Shown here one piece after another: positions 23,457 to 34,115 of a DNA stretch of 64,000 nt. Numbering within the stretch: the first letter of the stretch is position 1; the number at the start of each line of letters is the position of its first letter. Both the position numbers and the translations under genes were made by a program. The notes under the pieces are model-generated. The model saw only the letters and a program-made list of their open reading frames with translations, did no database searches and had not been told where the DNA came from. The stretch comes from a virus (taxonomy: Duplodnaviria; Heunggongvirae; Uroviricota; Caudoviricetes). The DNA is taken from IMG/VR virus record IMGVR_UViG_3300021256_000063, positions 64,001 to 128,000 of that record. One strand, written 5' to 3'.

Positions 23457-23675
23457 ATGTCGGTAGTGTTATATAGCACTGGATGTCCTAAGTGTCGAGT
23501 GCTTGAAAAAAAATTGAATACAGATGGAATTAAGTATTCTATTTCAAATGATATAAATAAATTAGTCGAGAAGGGCTTTCAGTCTGTACCTGTTCTTGAC
23601 GTTGACGGTGATTTTCTTGAGTTTAAGGATGCTGTTAATTGGATTAAGAACAGGGGGAAAAGGCATGAAGATTGA
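23457..23675 (+). CDS. nrdH: NrdH/glutaredoxin-like protein
   Basis: CPKC active site, SVPVL; directly upstream of nrdD. Confidence 0.8.
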   Translation: MSVVLYSTGCPKCRVLEKKLNTDGIKYSISNDINKLVEKGFQSVPVLDVDGDFLEFKDAVNWIKNRGKRHED

Positions 23676-25614
23676 TATTAAATTAATTAAGAATTTTGTT
23701 TCACAATATAATAAATTACAAGCAGAGTTCGGTACTGATATTGCAAAACTAAATGGATTTGATGATGGTCAGCTTAGCTATACAGATTTCATTGATAATT
23801 TTATTGATGAAGATGTAGTAGCTGATTCAAGTATTGATGGCAATTCAAATGTGAGTCATAAAGATATTGTTACTCTTGAGCGTGAAATGCCAAAGCCTCA
23901 TTCCAAACTTCTGGCTTTTAATAAAATTTATTATGAGATTTCTAAGAAATTTGGATTTAAAACGGCAAACGATTGGCTTAGGATGGAATGGATGGGCAAG
24001 CTTTATATGCATGATGCTCCTTCAAGTACATTCCGTAGTTATTGTTTTGCATATGATTTAACTGATCTGGCTGAAAAAGGATTGTTCTTTATTGAAGGAC
24101 AGAACCCTGAACCTGCTAAACATCTGACCACTTTTGTTGATTTTGTAAAAGAGTATGTAAGTTTTGCTTGTAATAGAACCTCTGGTGCAGTTGGACTTCC
24201 TAATATTATTCCTTATATGTTTTATTTTTGGAAGAAAGATATTGATCAAGATTATTTAGGAATTAGGTCAAGTCATAATGAAAAGTATTATGCTAAACAA
24301 AATTTTCAGCGTTTTATTTATGCTGTTAATCAGCCATATGTACGTGATGGTAGCCAATCGGCTTTTACTAATACAAGTGTGTTTGATCGTCCATATTTTG
24401 AGGCTCTTTTTGGTGGTGCAGAATTTCCAGATGGTACTTTTATGATTGATTATGAAGAAGAAATCATTGAATTTCAAAAATGGTATATGGAAGTAATGTC
24501 TGAAATTCGTAGTACTAATATGTTTACTTTTCCAGTAAGTACAATTTCTTTACTTCGTCAAGATGGTAAATTTGTAGATGAAGATTTTGCCCGTTGGGCT
24601 GTTAAGCATAATATGAAATGGTCTGATAGCAATTTATTTATTGATGAGACTGTTAATTCTCTTTCAAATTGTTGTCGATTAAAGAGTAATATTGAAGATC
24701 TTGGTTATTTTAATAGTATCGGCGGGACAGCGCTTAAAGTAGGCTCTGTAAAAGTTAACACAATTAATCTTGCACGCATTGCCTTAGATACTGATTCAGA
24801 AGATGAATATCTTGAAGAACTGAAAAATCGTGTTTATATTTGTCTGTGTGCCCTTGATGCAGTTAGGCACATTATTAAGAGAAATGTTGAAAAGGGGATG
24901 CTCCCCAATTTTACTTATGGGCTAATTGATTTTGAGCACCTGTATAATACTATTGGCTTTATTGGTGTTTATGAGACCATGAATAAATTTGGATACACTT
25001 ATAAAGATGAGTTTGGAAATACTTTTTATACAGATAAGGCTTCTGCTTTTGGAAAAAAGATTTTTGAAACAATGCGGGAAGTCGCCGATGGTTTTATTAA
25101 GGAATATAAATGTGATTATCAAATTAACACAGAGCAAATTCCCGGCGAAAGTGCTGCTGCTAAATTAATGAAAAAAGATAAGTTCTTTTACCCAAGAGCA
25201 ACTATTTATGTGCTTCCTCTTTATGGCAATCAGTTTATTCCTCTTGGAATTAAAACTACTCTTCAAGAAAGAATTAGGATAGCAGCTGAATTCGATAAAT
25301 ATTGTAATGGTGGATCGATACTCCATGCAAATATTGATGCACCGTTTGATAGTTTTGAAAAAGCATGGAAAATGGTTGAGTATATTGCAGATCAAGGACT
25401 GACCTATTTTGCATTTAATACTAAAATACAGTGCTGTGAAAATAATCATGCTTTTTATGGTACAACATGTCCAGTTTGTGGAAAACCTGTAGACAGTGAA
25501 TATACAAGAATCGTTGGTTTTTATACTAAAATTAAATCGTGGTCTACTGAAAGAACAGCTGAATATAAAATGAGGAAATGGGAACCTGTTAATCAAAATG
25601 AGGTTATATCATGA
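23665..25614 (+). CDS. nrdD: anaerobic (class III) ribonucleoside-triphosphate reductase, no N-terminal ATP cone apparent
   Basis: CCRL, TINL, EQIPGE, CENNH/CPVC Zn site, YTRIVGFY glycyl-radical motif. Confidence 0.92.
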   Translation: MKIDIKLIKNFVSQYNKLQAEFGTDIAKLNGFDDGQLSYTDFIDNFIDEDVVADSSIDGNSNVSHKDIVTLEREMPKPHSKLLAFNKIYYEISKKFGFKTANDWLRMEWMGKLYMHDAPSSTFRSYCFAYDLTDLAEKGLFFIEGQNPEPAKHLTTFVDFVKEYVSFACNRTSGAVGLPNIIPYMFYFWKKDIDQDYLGIRSSHNEKYYAKQNFQRFIYAVNQPYVRDGSQSAFTNTSVFDRPYFEALFGGAEFPDGTFMIDYEEEIIEFQKWYMEVMSEIRSTNMFTFPVSTISLLRQDGKFVDEDFARWAVKHNMKWSDSNLFIDETVNSLSNCCRLKSNIEDLGYFNSIGGTALKVGSVKVNTINLARIALDTDSEDEYLEELKNRVYICLCALDAVRHIIKRNVEKGMLPNFTYGLIDFEHLYNTIGFIGVYETMNKFGYTYKDEFGNTFYTDKASAFGKKIFETMREVADGFIKEYKCDYQINTEQIPGESAAAKLMKKDKFFYPRATIYVLPLYGNQFIPLGIKTTLQERIRIAAEFDKYCNGGSILHANIDAPFDSFEKAWKMVEYIADQGLTYFAFNTKIQCCENNHAFYGTTCPVCGKPVDSEYTRIVGFYTKIKSWSTERTAEYKMRKWEPVNQNEVIS

Positions 25615-26087
25615 AAATTCTTGGTATTATAGATGAAGATTTCATTAATTATAAAAAACCATCTATGGTAATTGAATTTCCTTATTGTTCGTTTAAATGT
25701 GATAAGGAATGTGGTAAACCTGTTTGTCAAAATAGCGCTCTTACTAATGAGCCTATTATTGAAATTGACGCTAAAAAAATAGTTGAAAGATATTTGCAAA
25801 ACCCAATTACTGAAGCAGTGGTATTTCAAGGACTAGAGCCATTAGATTCTTGTGAAGATATGTTTGATTTAATAATTGAAATTAGAAAAAGAACCGATGA
25901 TGACATTGTGATTTATACTGGTTATGATTCTCGTGAAATATATCATTACACAGATAAACTTGGTCATATATTCCCAAATATAATTATTAAATATGGCAGA
26001 TATATTCCAGACGTAAAACCACATTATGATCCTGTCCTTGGTGTTAATCTTGCATCTGATAACCAGTATGCAGAAAAAATATCTTGA
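25611..26087 (+). CDS. nrdG: NrdG-like radical-SAM activase
   Basis: CSFKCDKEC...CQN cysteine motif, GLEP; follows nrdD. Confidence 0.85.
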   Translation: MKILGIIDEDFINYKKPSMVIEFPYCSFKCDKECGKPVCQNSALTNEPIIEIDAKKIVERYLQNPITEAVVFQGLEPLDSCEDMFDLIIEIRKRTDDDIVIYTGYDSREIYHYTDKLGHIFPNIIIKYGRYIPDVKPHYDPVLGVNLASDNQYAEKIS

Positions 26088-26112
26088 CAAACAATAATTA
26101 AACATATACAAT
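26084..26112 (+). promoter_or_regulatory. sigma70-type promoter
   Basis: TTGACA-17 nt-TACAAT upstream of the HD gene/tRNA-Leu/vWA-PurA block. Confidence 0.8.
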
Positions 26113-26203
26113 AACAATATGTTACTAGTATTCCTCCGTTATGGGCTATGTGTGGTTTATTAATATCACCATAGCCCAACTAATGAAAAAGGTGGTGTAC
26201 CCT

Positions 26204-26860
26204 ATGACAAACGAACAAAAAATTGCAGTGTTTGAACCTATGTTTAAACATTTTGAAACACAAGAAGTCTTAGACTATTTTAAAGAAGTAGTGACAAAAA
26301 TTCCAGACGCTATTTTCTATAAACCTGCAAGTAGCTCTGGAAAATATCATAATAAACAGCAGATTGGAGAATACGGGCAGCTTATTCATATCTATATGTT
26401 CTTTGATATTTTGAATATGCTTCTTGATTTGGAGTATAATCGACAGAAATTCAACTATCCAGTCGCACGAGATTTGATGCGCTGTGTCCCTGCATTACAT
26501 GATATGTGTAAATATGGAGTAGCGGGTAGGATGAAACATACTACTGGTGAGCATCCACTCTTGGCACATCAGAAACTGGTTAAGATTAATCAGGATAAAA
26601 AGACTGAGCATCCTCTTAAAGAAGAATACCTTGAGGTGCTGTGTAATATGTGCGAACGTCATTCTGGACAATGGAATACCTATAGGATTGACAGCTATGG
26701 TTGGGACAGAACCCCAAAGATCGGTACTATGGAGAAACCCCAGAATGATATGGATATGCTGATTCACGAATGTGATATGTTGGCGTCAAGGAGTTGGCTC
26801 ACATATGAGATTCCTGAGGATTTGATGCAGAGATTTAAAGACAATATTGCGGATATCTAA
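26204..26860 (+). CDS. HD-domain phosphohydrolase
   Basis: PASSSGKYH, IH, LHD, HSGQW, HECD motifs; start ATG 26204 after AAGGTGG. Confidence 0.85.
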   Translation: MTNEQKIAVFEPMFKHFETQEVLDYFKEVVTKIPDAIFYKPASSSGKYHNKQQIGEYGQLIHIYMFFDILNMLLDLEYNRQKFNYPVARDLMRCVPALHDMCKYGVAGRMKHTTGEHPLLAHQKLVKINQDKKTEHPLKEEYLEVLCNMCERHSGQWNTYRIDSYGWDRTPKIGTMEKPQNDMDMLIHECDMLASRSWLTYEIPEDLMQRFKDNIADI

Positions 26861-26872
26861 TATCCGCTTTAA

Positions 26873-26954
26873 GCCCCTATGGTGAAATTGGCAAACACGT
26901 TGGCTTCAAGTACCAATGCTGAAAGGCTTCAGGGTTCGAGTCCCTGTAGGGGTA
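26873..26954 (+). tRNA. tRNA-Leu(CAA)
   Basis: GCCCCTA/TAGGGGT acceptor, TTCAAGT loop, long variable arm, CAGGG-TTCGAGT-CCCTG T-arm. Confidence 0.88.
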
Positions 26955-26997
26955 TTTAGTAATTATTAATTAAATTCATAAGCAAAGGAGTAAAACG

Positions 26998-27612
26998 ATG
27001 AACACTGATTTTTTTAATGGTATGTTTGGTAGGATTGATCCGGGCAACATCCGACTTGATGTGAATGGTAATATTGCTGTTCGCACAACAAATGGTTACA
27101 AGTCTTACAATACTAAGACTGGCAAGCTGATTAACTGTAACAATTTCGTCTTTGATATTGGCGAAGAGTTCTTTTTTGTAATTCCTACAAACAAGGTTGA
27201 AAAGGGTGATATTATCCTTGCTCAGAGTAAAGATGGCGGTCGTAAGCCTAAGTGCGTTGTAGATGTGAATCCCTCGTTTATTACTGTCATTAACTATGAA
27301 GATTCTACAGTAGAGCAGATTCTTCCTGAGCGCCACATGTTTATGGGCAATACTTATTTTTATGGCAAAATCGTTTCTATGTTCAATTTCTCTAAGGACG
27401 GCAATAAGAAAAACGGCTTCGAGAACATCCTGAAGTATAAGATGATGTCTGAAATGATGGGCGGTAAAAATGGTGGCGCTAATAATGGTATGGGCAATCT
27501 TATGATGCTTGGAATGATGAGTAACGGTGGTCTGAGTGACATGTTCAACTTTGATGGAATGTTTGATTTTGATAATGATGCAGAAGATGACAATCAGGAG
27601 GATGAAGAGTAA
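26998..27612 (+). CDS. hypothetical protein with Gly/Met/Asn-rich and acidic C-terminal tail
   Basis: 204 aa; translationally coupled to vWA gene. Confidence 0.75.
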   Translation: MNTDFFNGMFGRIDPGNIRLDVNGNIAVRTTNGYKSYNTKTGKLINCNNFVFDIGEEFFFVIPTNKVEKGDIILAQSKDGGRKPKCVVDVNPSFITVINYEDSTVEQILPERHMFMGNTYFYGKIVSMFNFSKDGNKKNGFENILKYKMMSEMMGGKNGGANNGMGNLMMLGMMSNGGLSDMFNFDGMFDFDNDAEDDNQEDEE

Positions 27613-28490
27613 TGGGTAGCGGAAGTTTTACAACAAGTAGTTTTACAAGTTATTCCAATAGTCGTGGACGTAGTGTAAGCAGTACTGGTTTTGTGACCAA
27701 TGATAGCCTGACAGATTATTATACTCAGCATTATATTCACAAAGATATGGTGCCTTATAATGTTACAAGAGAGTGCGTAGATTCTGAAGAACATCCCCAC
27801 ACAATTCCTGTAATTCTGGCGCTGGATTTGACCGGATCGATGGGCGGTGCTTGTGTAAAAACTGCGCAGTCCCTGAATAAAATTATGACAATGCTTTATG
27901 AGAAATTTACTGATATTGAATTCCTTGTAATGGGTGTTGGAGACCTTGAGTGTGACCGTGCGCCTGTTCAGGTGTCTCAGTTTGAATCTGATGTAAGGAT
28001 TGCAGAACATACTGATAAGCTTTATATGGAACATGGTGGTGGTGGAAATGGCTATGAATCCTATACCGCTGCTTGGTATTTTGGTCTGAGACATACAAAG
28101 CTTGATTGTTGGAAGCGTGGTAAAAAGGGCATTATTATTACTATGGGTGACGAGCCTCTTAATCCTATTCTATATAAACGCAATATCAGAGGCGTATTTG
28201 GAGATACACCAGAAGCAGACGTAAAGACGGAAGACTTGTACAAGATGGCAACTGAGAAGTTTGATATTTATCATATTGCCGTTGATGATCCTGAAGATAG
28301 CTATAGTTGGTATGATACTCGAATTAATTCAACATTCAGCCCTATTCTTGGAAACCGTCTGAAAGTATCTACAATTGAAAGACTTCCAATGACTATTGTT
28401 GATTGTATTGAAGATTCTGTGAATGGTGGTGCTCAGACAGAAGTAGTACAGAATAATGAAAAGAGCGAATCTGGTTATATTACATGGTGA
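27612..28490 (+). CDS. von Willebrand factor A (vWA) domain protein
   Basis: MIDAS-like ILALDLTGSM, GGGGNGYESY, ITMGDEP. Confidence 0.85.
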   Translation: MGSGSFTTSSFTSYSNSRGRSVSSTGFVTNDSLTDYYTQHYIHKDMVPYNVTRECVDSEEHPHTIPVILALDLTGSMGGACVKTAQSLNKIMTMLYEKFTDIEFLVMGVGDLECDRAPVQVSQFESDVRIAEHTDKLYMEHGGGGNGYESYTAAWYFGLRHTKLDCWKRGKKGIIITMGDEPLNPILYKRNIRGVFGDTPEADVKTEDLYKMATEKFDIYHIAVDDPEDSYSWYDTRINSTFSPILGNRLKVSTIERLPMTIVDCIEDSVNGGAQTEVVQNNEKSESGYITW

Positions 28491-28497
28491 TAATTAA

Positions 28498-29676
28498 ATG
28501 GATAAACAGCAGATTAAAATTATAGTAGGAGCACTTGCGGGTGATGAGGGCAAAGGTCTGGCTACAGATTATTTTGCTTCAAAAGCAGAGGGTCATATTC
28601 TTGGCGTCTTAACAAATGGATCTTCTCAAAGGGCGCATACAGTAGACACCTCTGATGGTAAACACCATGTGTTCAGTCATTTTAGTTCTGCTACATTTCG
28701 TGGGGCTGACACATATATTTCTAAATATTTTGTAGTCAACCCCATAAAATTTGTAGAAGAATACTTAGAATTACAGCGTAATTTTGGTATTTCACCTAAA
28801 GTATATATGCATCCCGATTGTAAGTTTGTTACGCCTTGGGATATGCTTTCTAATTTAGTTGAACTTAGAAAAACAGGAGAATTTAATAGCACAGGATGCG
28901 GATTTTGGAAAACTTTAGAAAGATATAATAATGATATATATTCTGTAAGTTTTCAGGATGCATGTAAACTAATTACTTTTTCTGAATCTTCATTTAAAGA
29001 TATAACGCAGTATTATAAAAAAGATTTAGATTCAATGCCATCATCTATTAATATGTCTGGTTTGGAGCGTCATTTTATTGATGATATGTTTTTCTTATTC
29101 CATCATGTTATTTGGATTGATGATGTGATTATTAATCAATATGAAAATGTCATCTTTGAAAATGGTCAAGGGTTAATGATTGGTGAACAGCAGCCAGAAA
29201 AAGACTGGAAATATTGCACACCTTCTAATACTGGTATTAAATATGCTGTTGAAATAATACGAAGTATAAATTTTTTAGATTTTAAGCAAAAAAAAGTTGA
29301 AATCTGTTATGTTTCAAGGACTTATATGACTAGGCATGGTCAGGGTAACATCCCAAATTTGTGTCAAAAACAAGACATAAATCCAGAAATGAATGATCGG
29401 ACTAATGTTTTTAATATTTGTCAAGGACATTTAAGATATGGTTTATTACCAGTGCAAGAAATGTTAAACAATTTTTATCGTGAGGTGGTAATTTCAACTG
29501 ATTTACATTTTAGTGGTATTGGCACAGATAATATAACATTCTCTTTAATGCTTACACATTGGAATGAATATCATGACAATAATGTCGAAACATTGTTTGA
29601 AAGATTTGAGAAAGTATATATTTCAGACAATAAAACAGCAGAGTCAGTAAAACTGAAAGAAGAGGTAATTAAATGA
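28498..29676 (+). CDS. atypical adenylosuccinate-synthetase (PurA)-like ligase
   Basis: GDEGKG, AHTV, STGCG, FENGQG, TPSNTG, RTYMTRHG; aspartate-binding loop divergent (TNVFNICQGHLRYG). Confidence 0.85.
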   Translation: MDKQQIKIIVGALAGDEGKGLATDYFASKAEGHILGVLTNGSSQRAHTVDTSDGKHHVFSHFSSATFRGADTYISKYFVVNPIKFVEEYLELQRNFGISPKVYMHPDCKFVTPWDMLSNLVELRKTGEFNSTGCGFWKTLERYNNDIYSVSFQDACKLITFSESSFKDITQYYKKDLDSMPSSINMSGLERHFIDDMFFLFHHVIWIDDVIINQYENVIFENGQGLMIGEQQPEKDWKYCTPSNTGIKYAVEIIRSINFLDFKQKKVEICYVSRTYMTRHGQGNIPNLCQKQDINPEMNDRTNVFNICQGHLRYGLLPVQEMLNNFYREVVISTDLHFSGIGTDNITFSLMLTHWNEYHDNNVETLFERFEKVYISDNKTAESVKLKEEVIK

Positions 29677-30041
29677 ACGAGAATAAACCTGTTTGGAAAG
29701 TGTATCGAGAAAATTATAATCAGAAATGTATCGAAGAATATAACATTTTCGATCACAATGAATTTTGGGATATGTGTCAGATTCATTGGATGAATGCACA
29801 TGACCAAGCCCCTAATAATGTAGAAGAACAGATTGAACGATTTAATGAATCTATTATTATTGAATTGCATTACTATTTCTGGAACAAATGTGAGTGGGAG
29901 ATTGAGTTGACATCGCTGTTTCCTAAGGATTTTAAGAATGAGAAAATTAGTGTATATTCTCAGGTCGCACTTAATATAAACGTATTTTTAACGTATCTTT
30001 GGAATTGGTTTACAAGAAAGGAATTGGAGAAGAATGGTTGA
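29673..30041 (+). CDS. hypothetical protein
   Basis: 122 aa, GAGGT SD, overlaps PurA-like stop. Confidence 0.7.
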   Translation: MNENKPVWKVYRENYNQKCIEEYNIFDHNEFWDMCQIHWMNAHDQAPNNVEEQIERFNESIIIELHYYFWNKCEWEIELTSLFPKDFKNEKISVYSQVALNINVFLTYLWNWFTRKELEKNG

Positions 30042-30810
30042 ATATAAGGTATACTTAACCACAAAAGTTAATCCAGCTAAGCTTGAGGCTAAAAAGGTTA
30101 ACCCACGACCAATTATTGTCATTGAACCTGAAGACTATACAGCTGAAGAAGTACAAGTTATTCGTAAGAAAGGCTACCGTGTACTAGCTTACCTGTCTTT
30201 GGGCACAAATGAGAAAAAGCGCAACTGGTATAATACATATAAGAAATATAATCTTAGTCGGCTTGAGGACTGGCCTGATGAATACTACGTGGATGTGCGT
30301 AGGGGTGCATGGCAAGAGCATTTGGTAACTCAGGCTAAGAAATATAAAGAAATGGGCTTTGATGGCTATTGGCTTGATAATCTGGATGTATATGAATATC
30401 ATAAGTCAAAGGCCATGTATGGTGCATGCTTGGGTGCTATTCAGAAGGTGAAAGCCGTTGGCGGTTATGTCATGATTAATGGCGGTTCTGAATTCTTTGA
30501 TTATTTTATGGATCACGACCCTAAACATCTTGGTATTGATGCGGTCAATGGTGTAACTCAGGAAGAAGTCTACTCCTTGATTAAAGATTATTCTAAGCGT
30601 GATAAAGATGGAAAAAAGGGTGTTTTTGGAGAGCAGACTAAGGATATGCATAAATGGTACAAGTCTTACATGAGACGCCTGAAAAGGCACAAATTTGATA
30701 CTTATTTGCTGGAATATACACGTTCTAGTAATTTAAAGAAGAGAATTAAAAATTATTGTGAAACAAATAAAATGACAGGTTATTATATCTCAGAAGATGT
30801 AGACCTGTAA
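30034..30810 (+). CDS. glycoside hydrolase family 114-like (endo-alpha-1,4-polygalactosaminidase/PelA-type)
   Basis: LAYLSLGTNE..R.W, WPDEYYVDVR, GFDGYWLDNLDVY, MINGG, QEE, LLEY. Confidence 0.8.
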   Translation: MVEYKVYLTTKVNPAKLEAKKVNPRPIIVIEPEDYTAEEVQVIRKKGYRVLAYLSLGTNEKKRNWYNTYKKYNLSRLEDWPDEYYVDVRRGAWQEHLVTQAKKYKEMGFDGYWLDNLDVYEYHKSKAMYGACLGAIQKVKAVGGYVMINGGSEFFDYFMDHDPKHLGIDAVNGVTQEEVYSLIKDYSKRDKDGKKGVFGEQTKDMHKWYKSYMRRLKRHKFDTYLLEYTRSSNLKKRIKNYCETNKMTGYYISEDVDL

Positions 30811-30878
30811 TTAGGAAATTTATATGACAAGATTGGAATTAGTAATTGCCGTATCAGATGTGTTATTAAGGGTGAGAT

Positions 30879-31244
30879 ATGATTATTGTCACAGATTATT
30901 GTAAACAAAATTATAAGCAACTGGGCTTCACATATGATAAGGACAGAGAATGCTGGAGATACAGCTTCCCTGTGCATTTCTGGGAAGACCATCCAGTGCT
31001 GTTTTGTAGAGTGTATTTAAGCAACGATTTAACCCGTGCCTCTTATGATGTAATGGATACATTCAATAATTTGTATACCCCGTTTTATGGTTATGAATAT
31101 GGGAGATATGGTGACTTTATTAAAAAGGCGAAAAATAAAATCCGTTACAGATTTAAGACATTGGGAATTGTAGAGAAGAAGGAGAAGAAGAAAAATGGAC
31201 ATCGGAAAAGTAGTAAAAGTAAAGTATCACGTAAACGGTCTTGA
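30879..31244 (+). CDS. hypothetical protein
   Basis: 121 aa, GGGTGAG SD. Confidence 0.65.
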   Translation: MIIVTDYCKQNYKQLGFTYDKDRECWRYSFPVHFWEDHPVLFCRVYLSNDLTRASYDVMDTFNNLYTPFYGYEYGRYGDFIKKAKNKIRYRFKTLGIVEKKEKKKNGHRKSSKSKVSRKRS

Positions 31245-31635
31245 GCCAATTTCTCAGGCGCATAGTGGAGAATGGTGCGACCTTAGATGTGCTGAAGATG
31301 TGGAACTGAAGAAGGGTGATTTTAAATACATCGATCTTGGTGTGTCGATTGCGCTTCCAGCAGGATATGAAGCGATTCTGGCACCAAGAAGTAGTACGTT
31401 TAAGAGGTACGGTATTATTCAGACAAATTCATTCGGTGTTATTGATAACGGTTACTCCTCAGATCAGGACAGGTGGATGATGCCTGTATACGCTACTCGT
31501 GATACAATTATTCATAAGAATGACAGAATCTGTCAGTTTAGAATTCAGGAAGGTCAGTTGCCTCTCAACATCATTCCAGTAAACACACTTGGAAATAATG
31601 CAAGAGGTGGTCTTGGCTCAACAGGAGTTAATTAA
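31195..31635 (+). CDS. dut: trimeric dUTPase
   Basis: DLR, APRSS, GVIDNGY, DRICQ, RGGLGSTG motifs. Confidence 0.92.
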   Translation: MDIGKVVKVKYHVNGLEPISQAHSGEWCDLRCAEDVELKKGDFKYIDLGVSIALPAGYEAILAPRSSTFKRYGIIQTNSFGVIDNGYSSDQDRWMMPVYATRDTIIHKNDRICQFRIQEGQLPLNIIPVNTLGNNARGGLGSTGVN

Positions 31636-31637
31636 TC

Positions 31638-32651
31638 ATGAGTGATAATAAAATATTTTCTGTAATCATTCCTGTATACAATGGTGAACGCACTATTGCC
31701 AGAGTACTTGCGTCACTCATTAGTAGTCGTGATTATATTTATGAGGTTATTATAGTCGATGATCACAGTGAAGATAATACACTTGACCTAATAGATGATT
31801 TTAATTCGTTTTTCCCAATTAAAGTAATGAGTAGTGACGGTTACCATAATCCTAGTGTAGCAAGAAAGACAGGGTTGCTGGTTGCTTCTGGGGAGTGGGT
31901 GACATTTGTTGATGCAGATGATTGCCTAACACCATCAAGTCTTAGATATGTGAAAGAACAGATTGATAATTACGATGAGAGTCTGGTACTTCTACATACA
32001 CAGACTATTTATTATGAATCTGGCAACTTTGTAGCACAGAATGTTGGACACGCTGATAACTCATGTGGGGGCAATTTTTATAAGCGTGAATTTTTAATTG
32101 GATATGACCTGTATCCACATGATGTTCTACGCATGGCTGAAGATGAATATTTCAATACCAAAATCACACGATTCATTGAATATATTGCTCCTGACTTTAC
32201 TGTTGAGCATTATGATTATCCAGTATATGAAGTACATCATGATATTGAAGATGGTAAGTCATATGCTATGTCTAATTGGGTAGAATATCTTATTAAATAT
32301 CATCTGTTGTGTCAGATATATTTGACTCAGGATTTGATAGTATATGACAATGAAGAATTAAATCAGAGACTGAAAGAAGATTATTTGAATGCCGTATTAT
32401 TTGGATATATGTTGCTACAGGCATTGATTGTAGATCAGACCGAAGAATTGGATGTAGGCGCACAAAAGAGGTATTTCCGAAAAGCTGTTCAGTTCTACTG
32501 TTTGAAGTTCGGTGGTACTAAAGATGATTTTATTAATCATTATAATGAAGATGCTGAACGAGTACAGATGTATCATGAAGGCGCTGTCGGAAGTGCTGGT
32601 GTGGAATTTGAGAACAGCGAATTATATGAAGATTTTATAGGGGGATTATGA
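31638..32651 (+). CDS. glycosyltransferase family 2 (GT-A)
   Basis: SVIIPVYN, IIVDDHSEDNT, FVDADD. Confidence 0.88.
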   Translation: MSDNKIFSVIIPVYNGERTIARVLASLISSRDYIYEVIIVDDHSEDNTLDLIDDFNSFFPIKVMSSDGYHNPSVARKTGLLVASGEWVTFVDADDCLTPSSLRYVKEQIDNYDESLVLLHTQTIYYESGNFVAQNVGHADNSCGGNFYKREFLIGYDLYPHDVLRMAEDEYFNTKITRFIEYIAPDFTVEHYDYPVYEVHHDIEDGKSYAMSNWVEYLIKYHLLCQIYLTQDLIVYDNEELNQRLKEDYLNAVLFGYMLLQALIVDQTEELDVGAQKRYFRKAVQFYCLKFGGTKDDFINHYNEDAERVQMYHEGAVGSAGVEFENSELYEDFIGGL

Positions 32652-32722
32652 TTGTATTAAATATGGTACAATATGAAAATAACCCGATATCCAATCGCTC
32701 CTTTCTCTATATATTATAATAG

Positions 32723-32903
32723 TGATTACACATTTGATTACTTTGTAATCAGGCTAAAAAAAGAGGAAGTCCCGAATCCCTGATAAATACTGGGGTTTGG
32801 ACTTCCTCTGGAGAGCTGGCAACGAGAATCGAACTTCGTGAAAACTCTCAAACCCTTGTATTTATTAGGATTCTTATGATTACATCTGATAAAAATGTAA
32901 TCA
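32723..32903. other. putative attP: tRNA-Gly-like 3' fragment (32814-32835, minus strand) with TGATTAC/GTAATCA arm repeats
   Basis: Minus strand reads AGTTCGATTCTCGT-TGCCAGC-T; TGATTAC at 32723, 32735, 32877 and GTAATCA at 32745, 32897; abuts integrase 3' end. Confidence 0.7.
32756..32809. terminator. intrinsic terminator hairpin between convergent arms
   Basis: AGAGGAAGTCC...GGACTTCCTCT stem with A7 run (U-tract on minus strand). Confidence 0.75.
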
Positions 32904-32906
32904 AAA

Positions 32907-34115
32907 TCAACAAAATTCAGGTATCGCATCAAGTATTTGTTGTTTTCTATCAAAACTTTTCCTATTCCGGTGATAGTTATTTTCAGATACTTTGATTTCC
33001 GAATGCCCCATTTGATCCTTGACCATACGTCTATCTACATTTGCATCAAGCAGAATAGAGTCGTATGTGGCACGAATCTTATGGGGCGATTTTTTGTATA
33101 CGCCTGTTTGATTACATACATAATACTCTCTTTTACGAAGATGGTATGTGGTCAGGCGTTTATCATTCTCTTTAAAGATATAATCTCCCTCAGAAGAACT
33201 GGCATATAAATTTCTAACAAGCCACTGATAACTGGTAGGCACCACAATTTCCCTGACACCCGCCTGAGTTTTAGGATAATCTTTTATGCCGTATACTGTA
33301 GAACCATTCTCCATATAACGTGTCTCTGTGCGTCTGATTTTGACGGTTCCAGTTTCAGGATTTAAATCTTCATGTTTCAGCGCAGCCAGTTCACCGATCC
33401 TAACACCAGTCACAAACATTAAAAGGATTCCTGCATTCTTAATATCACAGTGTTCTTTTAAATAATTCAGCATGAGCGCCGTTTCATGCTCATCAAACAC
33501 TACTTCATAGTCTTCTTTAATTGTTTTGTGGAACTCTTTGTCTGAAACATCTAAATCCGCAAATAGTAACTCAGGGCTAAATGAGATATAGCCTTTTCTT
33601 TTTGCTCGTTTTAAAATGCCTCGCATAATTGTCTTTAGACTGGCAAATGATTTGGCTGAGAGATTGTGTTCTGGAATCTGTCTTTCCAGAAATTCAATGA
33701 TTTCTAATTCAGTGACAGTTTTGATTTTCTTCTTGCCGAATTCTTTGAAGTGTTGATTAAATGTCTGTTTCATTCTGGTATGAGATGATTTAGCGATTTT
33801 CTTTAAATCACGCCTGTAATCATTCCACTCATTGAATACTTCCTCAATAGTAGGATTATCCATCTGTTCTTTCTGGTAAGCAACGATTACATTCTCAATC
33901 CCAGCTTTTGTACTCTTCCTCTTTAAGACCCTCCCTTTCTCTTTGTCTGGCAGATATACATACCAACTTCCATTCTTCCCTTGCCATGCTTTGTAAGGGT
34001 GTTTTTCTACTAACTCTTTTTTCTTCTCCATCTCTATAATAGATTGGATATCGGGTAAGTCTATTATGCCACGGGTTACGAGAAAATTCAAATCTTCATT
34101 AGTTAATCTATTCAT
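32907..34115 (-). CDS. int: tyrosine integrase
   Basis: TGVRIGEL (R), PKT (K), HKIR (HxxR), MGH, NNY (Y); SAM-like middle domain. Confidence 0.93.
   Translation of the reverse strand: MNRLTNEDLNFLVTRGIIDLPDIQSIIEMEKKKELVEKHPYKAWQGKNGSWYVYLPDKEKGRVLKRKSTKAGIENVIVAYQKEQMDNPTIEEVFNEWNDYRRDLKKIAKSSHTRMKQTFNQHFKEFGKKKIKTVTELEIIEFLERQIPEHNLSAKSFASLKTIMRGILKRAKRKGYISFSPELLFADLDVSDKEFHKTIKEDYEVVFDEHETALMLNYLKEHCDIKNAGILLMFVTGVRIGELAALKHEDLNPETGTVKIRRTETRYMENGSTVYGIKDYPKTQAGVREIVVPTSYQWLVRNLYASSSEGDYIFKENDKRLTTYHLRKREYYVCNQTGVYKKSPHKIRATYDSILLDANVDRRMVKDQMGHSEIKVSENNYHRNRKSFDRKQQILDAIPEFC

Follow-up and report, generated by a model that had tools for sequence, protein, structure and literature searches.

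A vWA-like protein and a non-housekeeping adenylosuccinate-synthetase-fold enzyme form an obligate gene pair in phages and bacteria, joined in one phage lineage by a Met/Gly-tailed protein

Adenylosuccinate synthetase (AdSS; PurA, EC 6.3.4.4, PF00709; Escherichia coli structures PDB 1ade and 1cg1) couples NTP-driven activation of a base carbonyl to L-aspartate on the way from IMP to AMP, for which PurB is also needed. Its relatives PurZ and PurZ0 are borne by the Z-genome phages (phiVC8, S-2L; PDB 6fm1, 7odx, 7vf6). PurZ has a Ser at the position of Asp13, uses aspartate as well and accompanies DatZ and MazZ (PMC8342488; bioRxiv 10.1101/2025.10.22.683976). We analysed a window of 64 000 nucleotides, bases 64001–128000 of the 157-kb virus record IMGVR_UViG_3300021256_000063 (Caudoviricetes; rated complete by CheckV), which encodes an AdSS-fold enzyme. 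Its gene (28498–29676, plus strand, 392 residues; PF00709, phrog_1211, AF2 model) is the third of three on the same strand, behind a gene for a vWA-like protein with a motif of the metal-ion-dependent adhesion site (MIDAS) type (27612–28490, 292 residues, phrog_2971) and a gene for a Met/Gly-tailed protein, here called p204 (26998–27612, 204 residues). The original prediction, made from the letters of the window, had described a coupled three-gene unit at 26998–29676, and the reading frames agree with it: genes 1 and 2 overlap by 1 nt (TAATG) and genes 2 and 3 are 7 nt apart (TAATTAA). The core of this arrangement is an obligate pair of a MIDAS-bearing vWA-like protein and a non-housekeeping AdSS-fold enzyme. 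We see about an even chance that the triad is one copy of a widespread, undescribed module in which PurA-type activation is coupled to an amine other than free aspartate.

The linkage of the pair was followed in 38 viral loci retrieved through p204 and in 80 loci from bacteria or metagenome-assembled genomes (MAGs), kept out of 507 that match a vWA profile in species-representative genomes. The vWA gene adjoins p204 in all 38 viral loci, and the PurA-like gene comes next in all but one, which meets a contig end. Among the bacterial and MAG loci, the PurA-like gene adjoins the vWA gene in 78 of 80; the other two stop at a contig edge. Adjacent vWA and PurA-like genes in the same order are present in Vibrio phage Va1, Rhizobium phage RHph_TM3_3_6, Mycobacterium phage Tonenili and a human-gut phage. 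Each gene of the pair matches 219 of 50 697 phage records with near-identical taxon make-up (about 200 Mycobacterium, 10 Rhizobium, 6 Vibrio and 1 gut phage). This gene-neighbourhood check confirms the proposed vWA partner as a conserved neighbour of the PurA-like gene across very distant phages and bacteria. The triad as a whole fared differently: the vWA/PurA-like pair holds in almost every locus examined and p204 within this lineage, but the third gene is variable elsewhere. The pair is thus the invariant core, while the third gene varies and can stand alone. All three genes are under purifying selection, with dN/dS values against close relatives of 0.04–0.06 for p204, 0.09–0.19 for the vWA gene and 0.19–0.24 for the PurA-like gene. 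No published description of a vWA and PurA-like pairing, or of NrtR with an adenylosuccinate-synthetase-like gene, was found in the literature; a paper on a Vi01-like phage only lists both annotations. A megablast search of the region against phage records gave no match.

Judged by its sequence, the enzyme belongs to the superfamily but passes the defining tests of neither PurA nor PurZ. The PF00709 profile covers only residues 8–301 (E 1.9e-18). All NCBIfam PurA equivalog models reach at most 43.6 bits against cut-offs of 368–700 (NF002223, 43.6 against 402; TIGR00184, 38.4 against 395.55), and the NCBIfam PurZ model NF038379 gives 21.3 bits against a cut-off of 300. Two isolate genomes, those of Lachnospiraceae bacterium NE2001 and Mediterraneibacter hominis, encode a canonical PurA (542–545 bits) besides the vWA-linked paralogue (71–111 bits). 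An AF2 model of the enzyme, built on 38 diverse relatives (pLDDT 82, pTM 0.88), retrieved only AdSS-family structures in a Foldseek search (PurA, archaeal PurA, PurZ and PurZ0; TM 0.52–0.73, 12–19% identity), with TM values of 0.6–0.73 to the PurA structures.

The motifs quoted in the original prediction are all present: the P-loop GDEGKG (residues 15–20, nt 28540–28557), AHTV (46–49, 28633–28644), ENGQG (221–225, 29158–29172), TRHG (278–281, 29329–29340) and TNVFNICQGHLRYG (302–315, 29401–29442). The last does occupy the position of the aspartate loop, as had been read by eye; profile and multiple alignments place it on GATTGRRRRTG of E. coli PurA. Residues were mapped by aligning the window protein and five distant relatives with E. 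coli PurA and phiVC8 PurZ. The residues D13, K16, H41, Q224, T239 and R272 of E. coli PurA are kept, also in the distant relatives, as D16, K19, H47, Q224, T241 and R279, and D16, K19, H47 and Q224 are invariant in the 38 diverse relatives; N38 corresponds to Q44. In the E. coli enzyme, mutagenesis is reported to have assigned L-aspartate recognition to Thr300, Thr301 and Val273. T301 is replaced by Q309 and V273 by H280, and Gln and His, respectively, occur in six of six clade sequences compared. Thr300 corresponds to C308 and R303 to H311, both variable within the clade; the position of R304 carries a hydrophobic residue in the clade, and the equivalent of R305 remains basic (Arg or Lys). 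Compared with that of PurA, the loop lacks one residue. R303 of E. coli PurA makes contact both with the substrate aspartate and with the 2'-OH group of IMP (PMC8342488). Further downstream LTHWNEY (29551–29571) may, by eye, replace LTKLD of PurA; for the guanine-specificity elements of PurA (Lys331, Asp333, C-terminal loop), the alignments either stop at about residue 319 or lose their reliability past that point.

Because the Asp13-type base, the His and the Gln are retained, we infer that the enzyme still activates the lactam-type base of a nucleoside monophosphate, and it probably shares the NTP-driven activation of the base carbonyl with PurA. A nucleophile other than free L-aspartate is proposed because the aspartate determinants are replaced by clade-conserved residues.

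The same retained residues could be those of a true but divergent adenylosuccinate synthetase that boosts AMP from IMP and aspartate via the PurB of the host, with the vWA-like protein and p204 as unrelated neighbours. The likeness to PurA extends over the fold, GDEGKG with the catalytic Asp, the His, Gln224, Thr239 and TRxG; catalytic core and nucleotide-site residues are kept, together with one basic residue of the Arg-rich loop. The gene lies within a nucleotide-metabolism block, and public annotations name its relatives ‘adenylosuccinate synthase’. We nevertheless regard this explanation as unlikely. The positions of T301, R303 and V273 are replaced, two of them fixed to new residues across the clade, the C-terminal guanine region cannot be aligned, and the equivalog scores given above stay at 43.6 bits or less (against 402 for the model concerned, and 368 to 700 overall). 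Moreover, a vWA gene adjoins in almost every locus examined, and bacteria bearing the module also carry a full-scoring PurA.

A PurZ/PurZ0-type enzyme, making 2-aminoadenine (Z) nucleotides for a modified phage genome, would share with the enzyme that it is phage-borne. The best PHROG of the enzyme is phrog_1211, labelled ‘2-aminooxy adenylosuccinate synthetase’ (PurZ), so that PHROG groups the two together; the fold similarity to PurZ/PurZ0 equals that to PurA, and a gene for an HD-domain protein lies upstream (26141–26860, plus strand, 239 residues; Pfam HD E 0.0013, below the cut-off; phrog_5889). This reading is close to refuted. As already stated in the original prediction, PurZ has a Ser where the enzyme has the Asp of GDEGKG: phiVC8 PurZ reads GSTGKG, and its S14 aligns with D16 of the window protein. 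The score with the PurZ model is 21.3 against 300. PurZ also uses aspartate, whose site and loop are lost in the enzyme described here, and the module is found in ordinary bacterial chromosomes under NrtR as well. The upstream HD protein was considered as a DatZ-like candidate and rejected, as it has no similarity to phiVC8 DatZ; no DatZ-like gene is present (MazZ was not searched for).

In the reading that we prefer, coupling of PurA-type activation to another amine, the enzyme would bind a nucleoside 5'-monophosphate with a lactam-type (6-oxopurine-like) base. The carbonyl oxygen would be phosphorylated from an NTP in the fashion of PurA, and the activated carbon would then be attacked by an amine other than free L-aspartate, for which ammonia, another small amine or a protein amine are candidates. 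The product would be AMP-like or an N6-substituted purine nucleotide, formed without need of PurB. The absence of purB from the window, on which the original prediction had drawn, extends to the whole phage: no Lyase_1/PurB gene is present in the complete 157-kb genome. The earlier conclusion, that the system is not purine salvage but an uncharacterised ligase, stands in so far as the enzyme fails the tests of PurA and PurZ; the amine that is joined and the product can be named only as candidates.

The second gene of the pair encodes the vWA-like protein, which belongs to phrog_2971 (E 1.6e-53), a PHROG without known function. Its MIDAS-type residues are D72-L-T74-G-S76 (DLTGS, nt 27825–27839) and G179-D180-E181 (within MGDE, 28143–28154). 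In an alignment of 15 sequences, including the Vibrio, Rhizobium and Mycobacterium phage versions, D72, G75, S76, G179, D180 and E181 are invariant and T74 is kept in at least 90%; the middle Thr of the MIDAS was not assigned. Two family motifs, QFExDxRIA and GGGGNxxESY, are also conserved in this alignment and read SQFESDVRIAE (27975–28007) and GGGGNGYESY (28035–28064) in the window. Protein-language-model neighbours with a VWA_4 domain score 0.85, which is a lead only. The vWA profile matched TssA among solved structures with an E-value of 0.32, and this match was dismissed as chance. Nearly all vWA proteins of the rumen and gut clade end with x-x-Trp (ISW, ITW, IVW and so on; window 28476–28487), a residue that is absent from the Vibrio, Rhizobium and Mycobacterium phage versions.

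Anantharaman, Iyer and Aravind are said to have reported in 2012 that TerY-type vWA proteins are paired with a kinase and a phosphatase in Ter stress-response clusters. These clusters offer an analogy to the present module, with a stand-alone MIDAS vWA protein, a kinase-like partner and genes predicted for a nucleoside-like metabolite, but they are not known to include an AdSS-fold enzyme.

We suggest that the vWA-like protein is a physical partner of the enzyme, either one of its subunits or its regulator. Prediction of the complex of the two gave a score of 0.47 (median of three runs) against 0.00 for the best control. This mark is reached by 58 of 80 solved complexes and by 2 of 110 mismatched pairs; of those that reach it, however, only 7 of the 80 solved complexes but both mismatches do so at 0.60 or under, and with the custom alignments used here these counts hold only roughly. 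Agreement between the runs amounts to at least 0% of contacts, with a partner pLDDT of at least 69. The original prediction had cast the vWA-like protein as a possible adaptor, a role for which this score is weak support.

The Met/Gly-tailed partner family is the element that is new in this window. The N-terminal domain of p204 (residues 1–130, nt 26998–27387) is conserved and beta-rich and includes an SH3/Tudor/KOW-like barrel. The tail is predicted to be disordered, is rich in Gly, Asn, Met and Asp, and carries the motif DMFNFDGMFDFD (27538–27573), conserved MLPFMMM-type and MFDGMFDF motifs and an acidic end (DDNQEDEE, 27586–27609). No match was found in Pfam, PHROG or NCBIfam, yet the family comprises 3346 clusters at 90% identity and 1044 representatives at 50% identity (E ≤ 1e-3). 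In the AF2 model (pLDDT 66) the barrel spans residues 60–127 and gives a Z of 6–6.8 in a structural search, a generic match; Foldseek with this model against PDB returned nothing at E ≤ 0.001. The earlier claim of a genuine third member of low complexity is upheld for this lineage by its conservation and by the strong constraint noted above (dN/dS 0.04–0.06), with dN values of 0.01–0.02 in the N-terminal domain and 0.08–0.13 in the tail.

In Vibrio phage Va1 and in the Rhizobium phage, the gene just upstream of the vWA gene encodes a protein of the same architecture (237 and 276 residues, respectively), with a Met/Gly-rich tail that ends in FDD or FFDN. The Va1 reading frame (L001:3249–3962) is unannotated in the public record, which has a gap between Va1_035 and Va1_038. 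These two proteins are likely to be homologous to p204: hhalign gives 87% probability (E 3.7e-6, 36 columns), and the p204 N-domain HMM aligns with residues 11–97 of the Va1 protein (13 bits, E 2e-5 among four candidate neighbour proteins). The pairwise BLAST comparison of p204 with the Vibrio phage protein was not significant. In Mycobacterium phages a DnaJ-plus-kinase-like protein takes the position of the third gene (confirmed in Tonenili). Bacillus phage G carries the p204 N-terminal domain in gp39 (L135:4605–5645; 30% identity, E 6e-5, Foldseek E 2e-9), followed by a Met-rich tail with MLPFMMM. The role of scaffold or substrate foreseen for p204 stays a conjecture, and the protein also occurs without the pair in phage G; we propose that it is an accessory third component in this lineage, whose acidic tail would be a candidate ligand of the vWA metal site. 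Nine of ten long p204-family proteins have no Pfam domain in their extensions. A metagenomic protein of 495 residues, P0342, carries a p204-type domain that is preceded by a NUDIX domain (E 1.4e-12), either as a real fusion or by a merged gene call; it hints further at a link to ADP-ribose and NAD.

A protein partner tied to an enzyme that has lost its free-aspartate pocket would also suit a protein-directed ligase, which, instead of making a free metabolite, would covalently join an activated purine nucleotide, via C6, to the N-terminus of the vWA-like protein or to a lysine or terminus of p204 and so make a purinylated protein. The N-terminus MGxGx[WFY] is found in 101 of 110 vWA relatives and in the Vibrio, Rhizobium and Mycobacterium phage versions (MGSGSF in the window), p204 is extremely constrained, and its barrel resembles, at a Z of only about 6, the KOW-type domains of EF-P/eIF5A with their modified loop residues. 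The complex prediction (0.47 against 0.00 for the control) adds weak support. On the other hand, the vWA N-terminus is MSKG in one sub-lineage with intact enzymes (L006, L009, L012), and K78, the most promising lysine of p204, is not strictly conserved. Moreover, phage G has p204 but lacks the enzyme, and the complex prediction came with no reported contacts. We therefore hold a protein substrate to be improbable. If true, it would mean a new protein nucleotide modification under bacterial ADP-ribose/NrtR control, borrowed by phages.

The surroundings of the module in other genomes point to NAD/ADP-ribose-linked nucleotide metabolism, because the module repeatedly adjoins NrtR, PncA/PncB and NADAR genes there; the original prediction had left this option aside. 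In five of five Lachnospiraceae loci tested, a regulator with NUDIX and NrtR_WHD domains (NrtR) is encoded directly downstream of the PurA-like gene. In a Clostridiales bin (L092), an isochorismatase-family protein and PncB are encoded directly upstream of the vWA gene; the former is read as PncA because it stands next to PncB. About 1 kb upstream of its triad, Vibrio phage Va1 has a gene with a NADAR domain, and the annotation of the Rhizobium phage record places two further genes within 4 kb, one phosphoribosyltransferase-like and one for an NMN adenylyltransferase/NUDIX protein. We suggest that in cellular copies the module would be wired to NAD/ADP-ribose control through NrtR, and that in this phage it probably adjusts the purine or NAD-related nucleotide pool of the infected cell. 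A role in DNA modification, one of those considered in the original prediction, is unlikely because the module is present in ordinary bacterial chromosomes. PADLOC returned nothing for the five proteins submitted.

This neighbourhood also bears on an ammonia-dependent aminase or amidase-synthetase, which would convert IMP to AMP directly or amidate NaMN or NaAD and thus allow salvage without PurB or NadE. Such chemistry parallels that of CTP synthetase. It would agree with the lack of an aspartate pocket and of a PurB gene, with PncA-PncB directly upstream in the Clostridiales bin and with NrtR directly downstream in Lachnospiraceae. However, it leaves the obligate vWA partner without a role, and the conservation of Gln309, Arg313 and His280 speaks for a specific ligand, probably an anion, and not for ammonia. 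An Asp13-type base fits a lactam N–H, as in a purine, better than a carboxylate substrate, and the phage has no other NAD gene. We give this explanation only a small chance.

Several points weigh against the coupling of PurA-type activation to an amine other than free aspartate within a vWA-containing module. Its substrate, phosphate donor, nucleophile and product are what we infer rather than observe, and the C-terminal third of the enzyme, including the guanine-specificity motif, is not alignable to PurA. The vWA-like protein has no Pfam vWA match (E < 0.01) and no PDB match by sequence or profile; its assignment as vWA-like follows from the motifs, phrog_2971 and the weak language-model lead. 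The prediction of the complex speaks only weakly for physical association, with no contacts reported. The complete genome of this phage has no match to NAPRTase, NUDIX, NMNAT or PurB, so that it shows no sign of the NAD link, and the 497-kb phage G has the p204-like gp39 but neither this vWA gene nor any AdSS-family gene. Finally, three relatives (L007, L008 and L010) have a broken PurA-like frame but intact p204 and vWA genes.

In L007 and L008, which come from different samples, a 2-nt insertion at the same place (L007:5960–6010) makes a TAG and breaks the frame before the P-loop codons; in the third, a 1-nt shift (L010:7575–7640) breaks it just before these codons. Their p204 proteins are 94–96% identical to that of the window over the N-terminal ~150 residues. 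The broken frames may be due to decay, recoding or assembly error, and the enzyme may be dispensable or recoded there. Broken frames, together with a divergence of 12–19% identity to solved family members, might be expected of a non-catalytic pseudo-enzyme that senses nucleotides or has a regulatory role in complex with the vWA-like protein. We consider this very improbable, as all phosphotransfer residues are invariant across the 38 diverse sequences and dN/dS is about 0.2.

The gap between the vWA and PurA-like genes holds additional reading frames in some relatives. An ORF of about 61 residues (MSDELKWCK...) lies there in L005 (5660–5850), L007 (5777–5962) and L008 and is not found in the window. 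A group I intron in this gap was considered and rejected, as an Rfam scan of three relatives gave only tRNAs. In three more distant relatives, ORFs of 241–254 residues occupy the gap (L015:7463–8227, L021:7567–8292, L035:7545–8270); these may be mobile, homing-endonuclease-like insertions.

The phage genome that carries the triad is large and low in GC (about 36%) and encodes tRNAs, the anaerobic ribonucleotide reductase (NrdD/NrdG), dUTPase, giant tail fibres and an integrase. The sources of its closest relatives are metagenomes of rumen and gut, and genome bins of Lachnospiraceae, Ruminococcus and Bacteroidales. The triad sits in the nucleotide-metabolism block (NrdD/NrdG, dUTPase). NrdD and NrdG are encoded a few kb upstream of the module both here (23596–26087) and in the unrelated Vibrio phage Va1 (L001:1–654). 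Upstream of p204, ARAGORN detects a tRNA-Leu(CAA) (26873–26954, plus strand), and a tRNA is found at the same place in the relatives L007 and L010. The original prediction had placed the triad downstream of a consensus promoter and this tRNA. The tRNA is where it was said to be; the promoter, a near-consensus sigma-70-type site (TTGACA-17-TACAAT, 26084–26112, plus strand, 11 of 12 matches, the best site in 25500–33000), stands in front of the HD gene and before the tRNA, and no such site lies between the tRNA-Leu and gene 1. Going by this arrangement of the sequence, the site probably starts one transcription unit comprising the HD gene, tRNA-Leu and the triad.

The coupling extends beyond gene 3, through an ATGA overlap into a gene for a protein of 122 residues (29673–30041, plus strand), which belongs to no family and has no match in Pfam, PHROG or NCBIfam, and from there by an 8-nt overlap into a GH114-like gene (30034–30810). 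Both are kept only in the nearest relatives (a homologue of the 122-residue protein only in L005, L011 and L012), as is the HD gene only in the closest relatives. The 122-residue protein is probably a lineage-specific neighbour outside the core module.

Across hundreds of phages (about 200 Mycobacterium records among them) and many bacteria, annotation pipelines give these enzyme genes the label ‘adenylosuccinate synthase’ or ‘PurZ’; very probably neither is right. How widespread the module is can be seen from 507 loci for the vWA profile, 219 phage records for each gene of the pair and more than 1000 clusters at 50% identity for the p204 N-terminal domain. Depletion of NAD, together with its reversal, is a central theme in phage–host conflict, and NrtR is an ADP-ribose-responsive regulator of NAD metabolism. 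The contribution of this window is that a large, unnamed and strongly constrained Met/Gly-tailed family is recognized as a recurrent third partner. The product of the enzyme, once found, would extend nucleotide or NAD biochemistry by one reaction, and it would explain why large phages of unrelated hosts retain the module.

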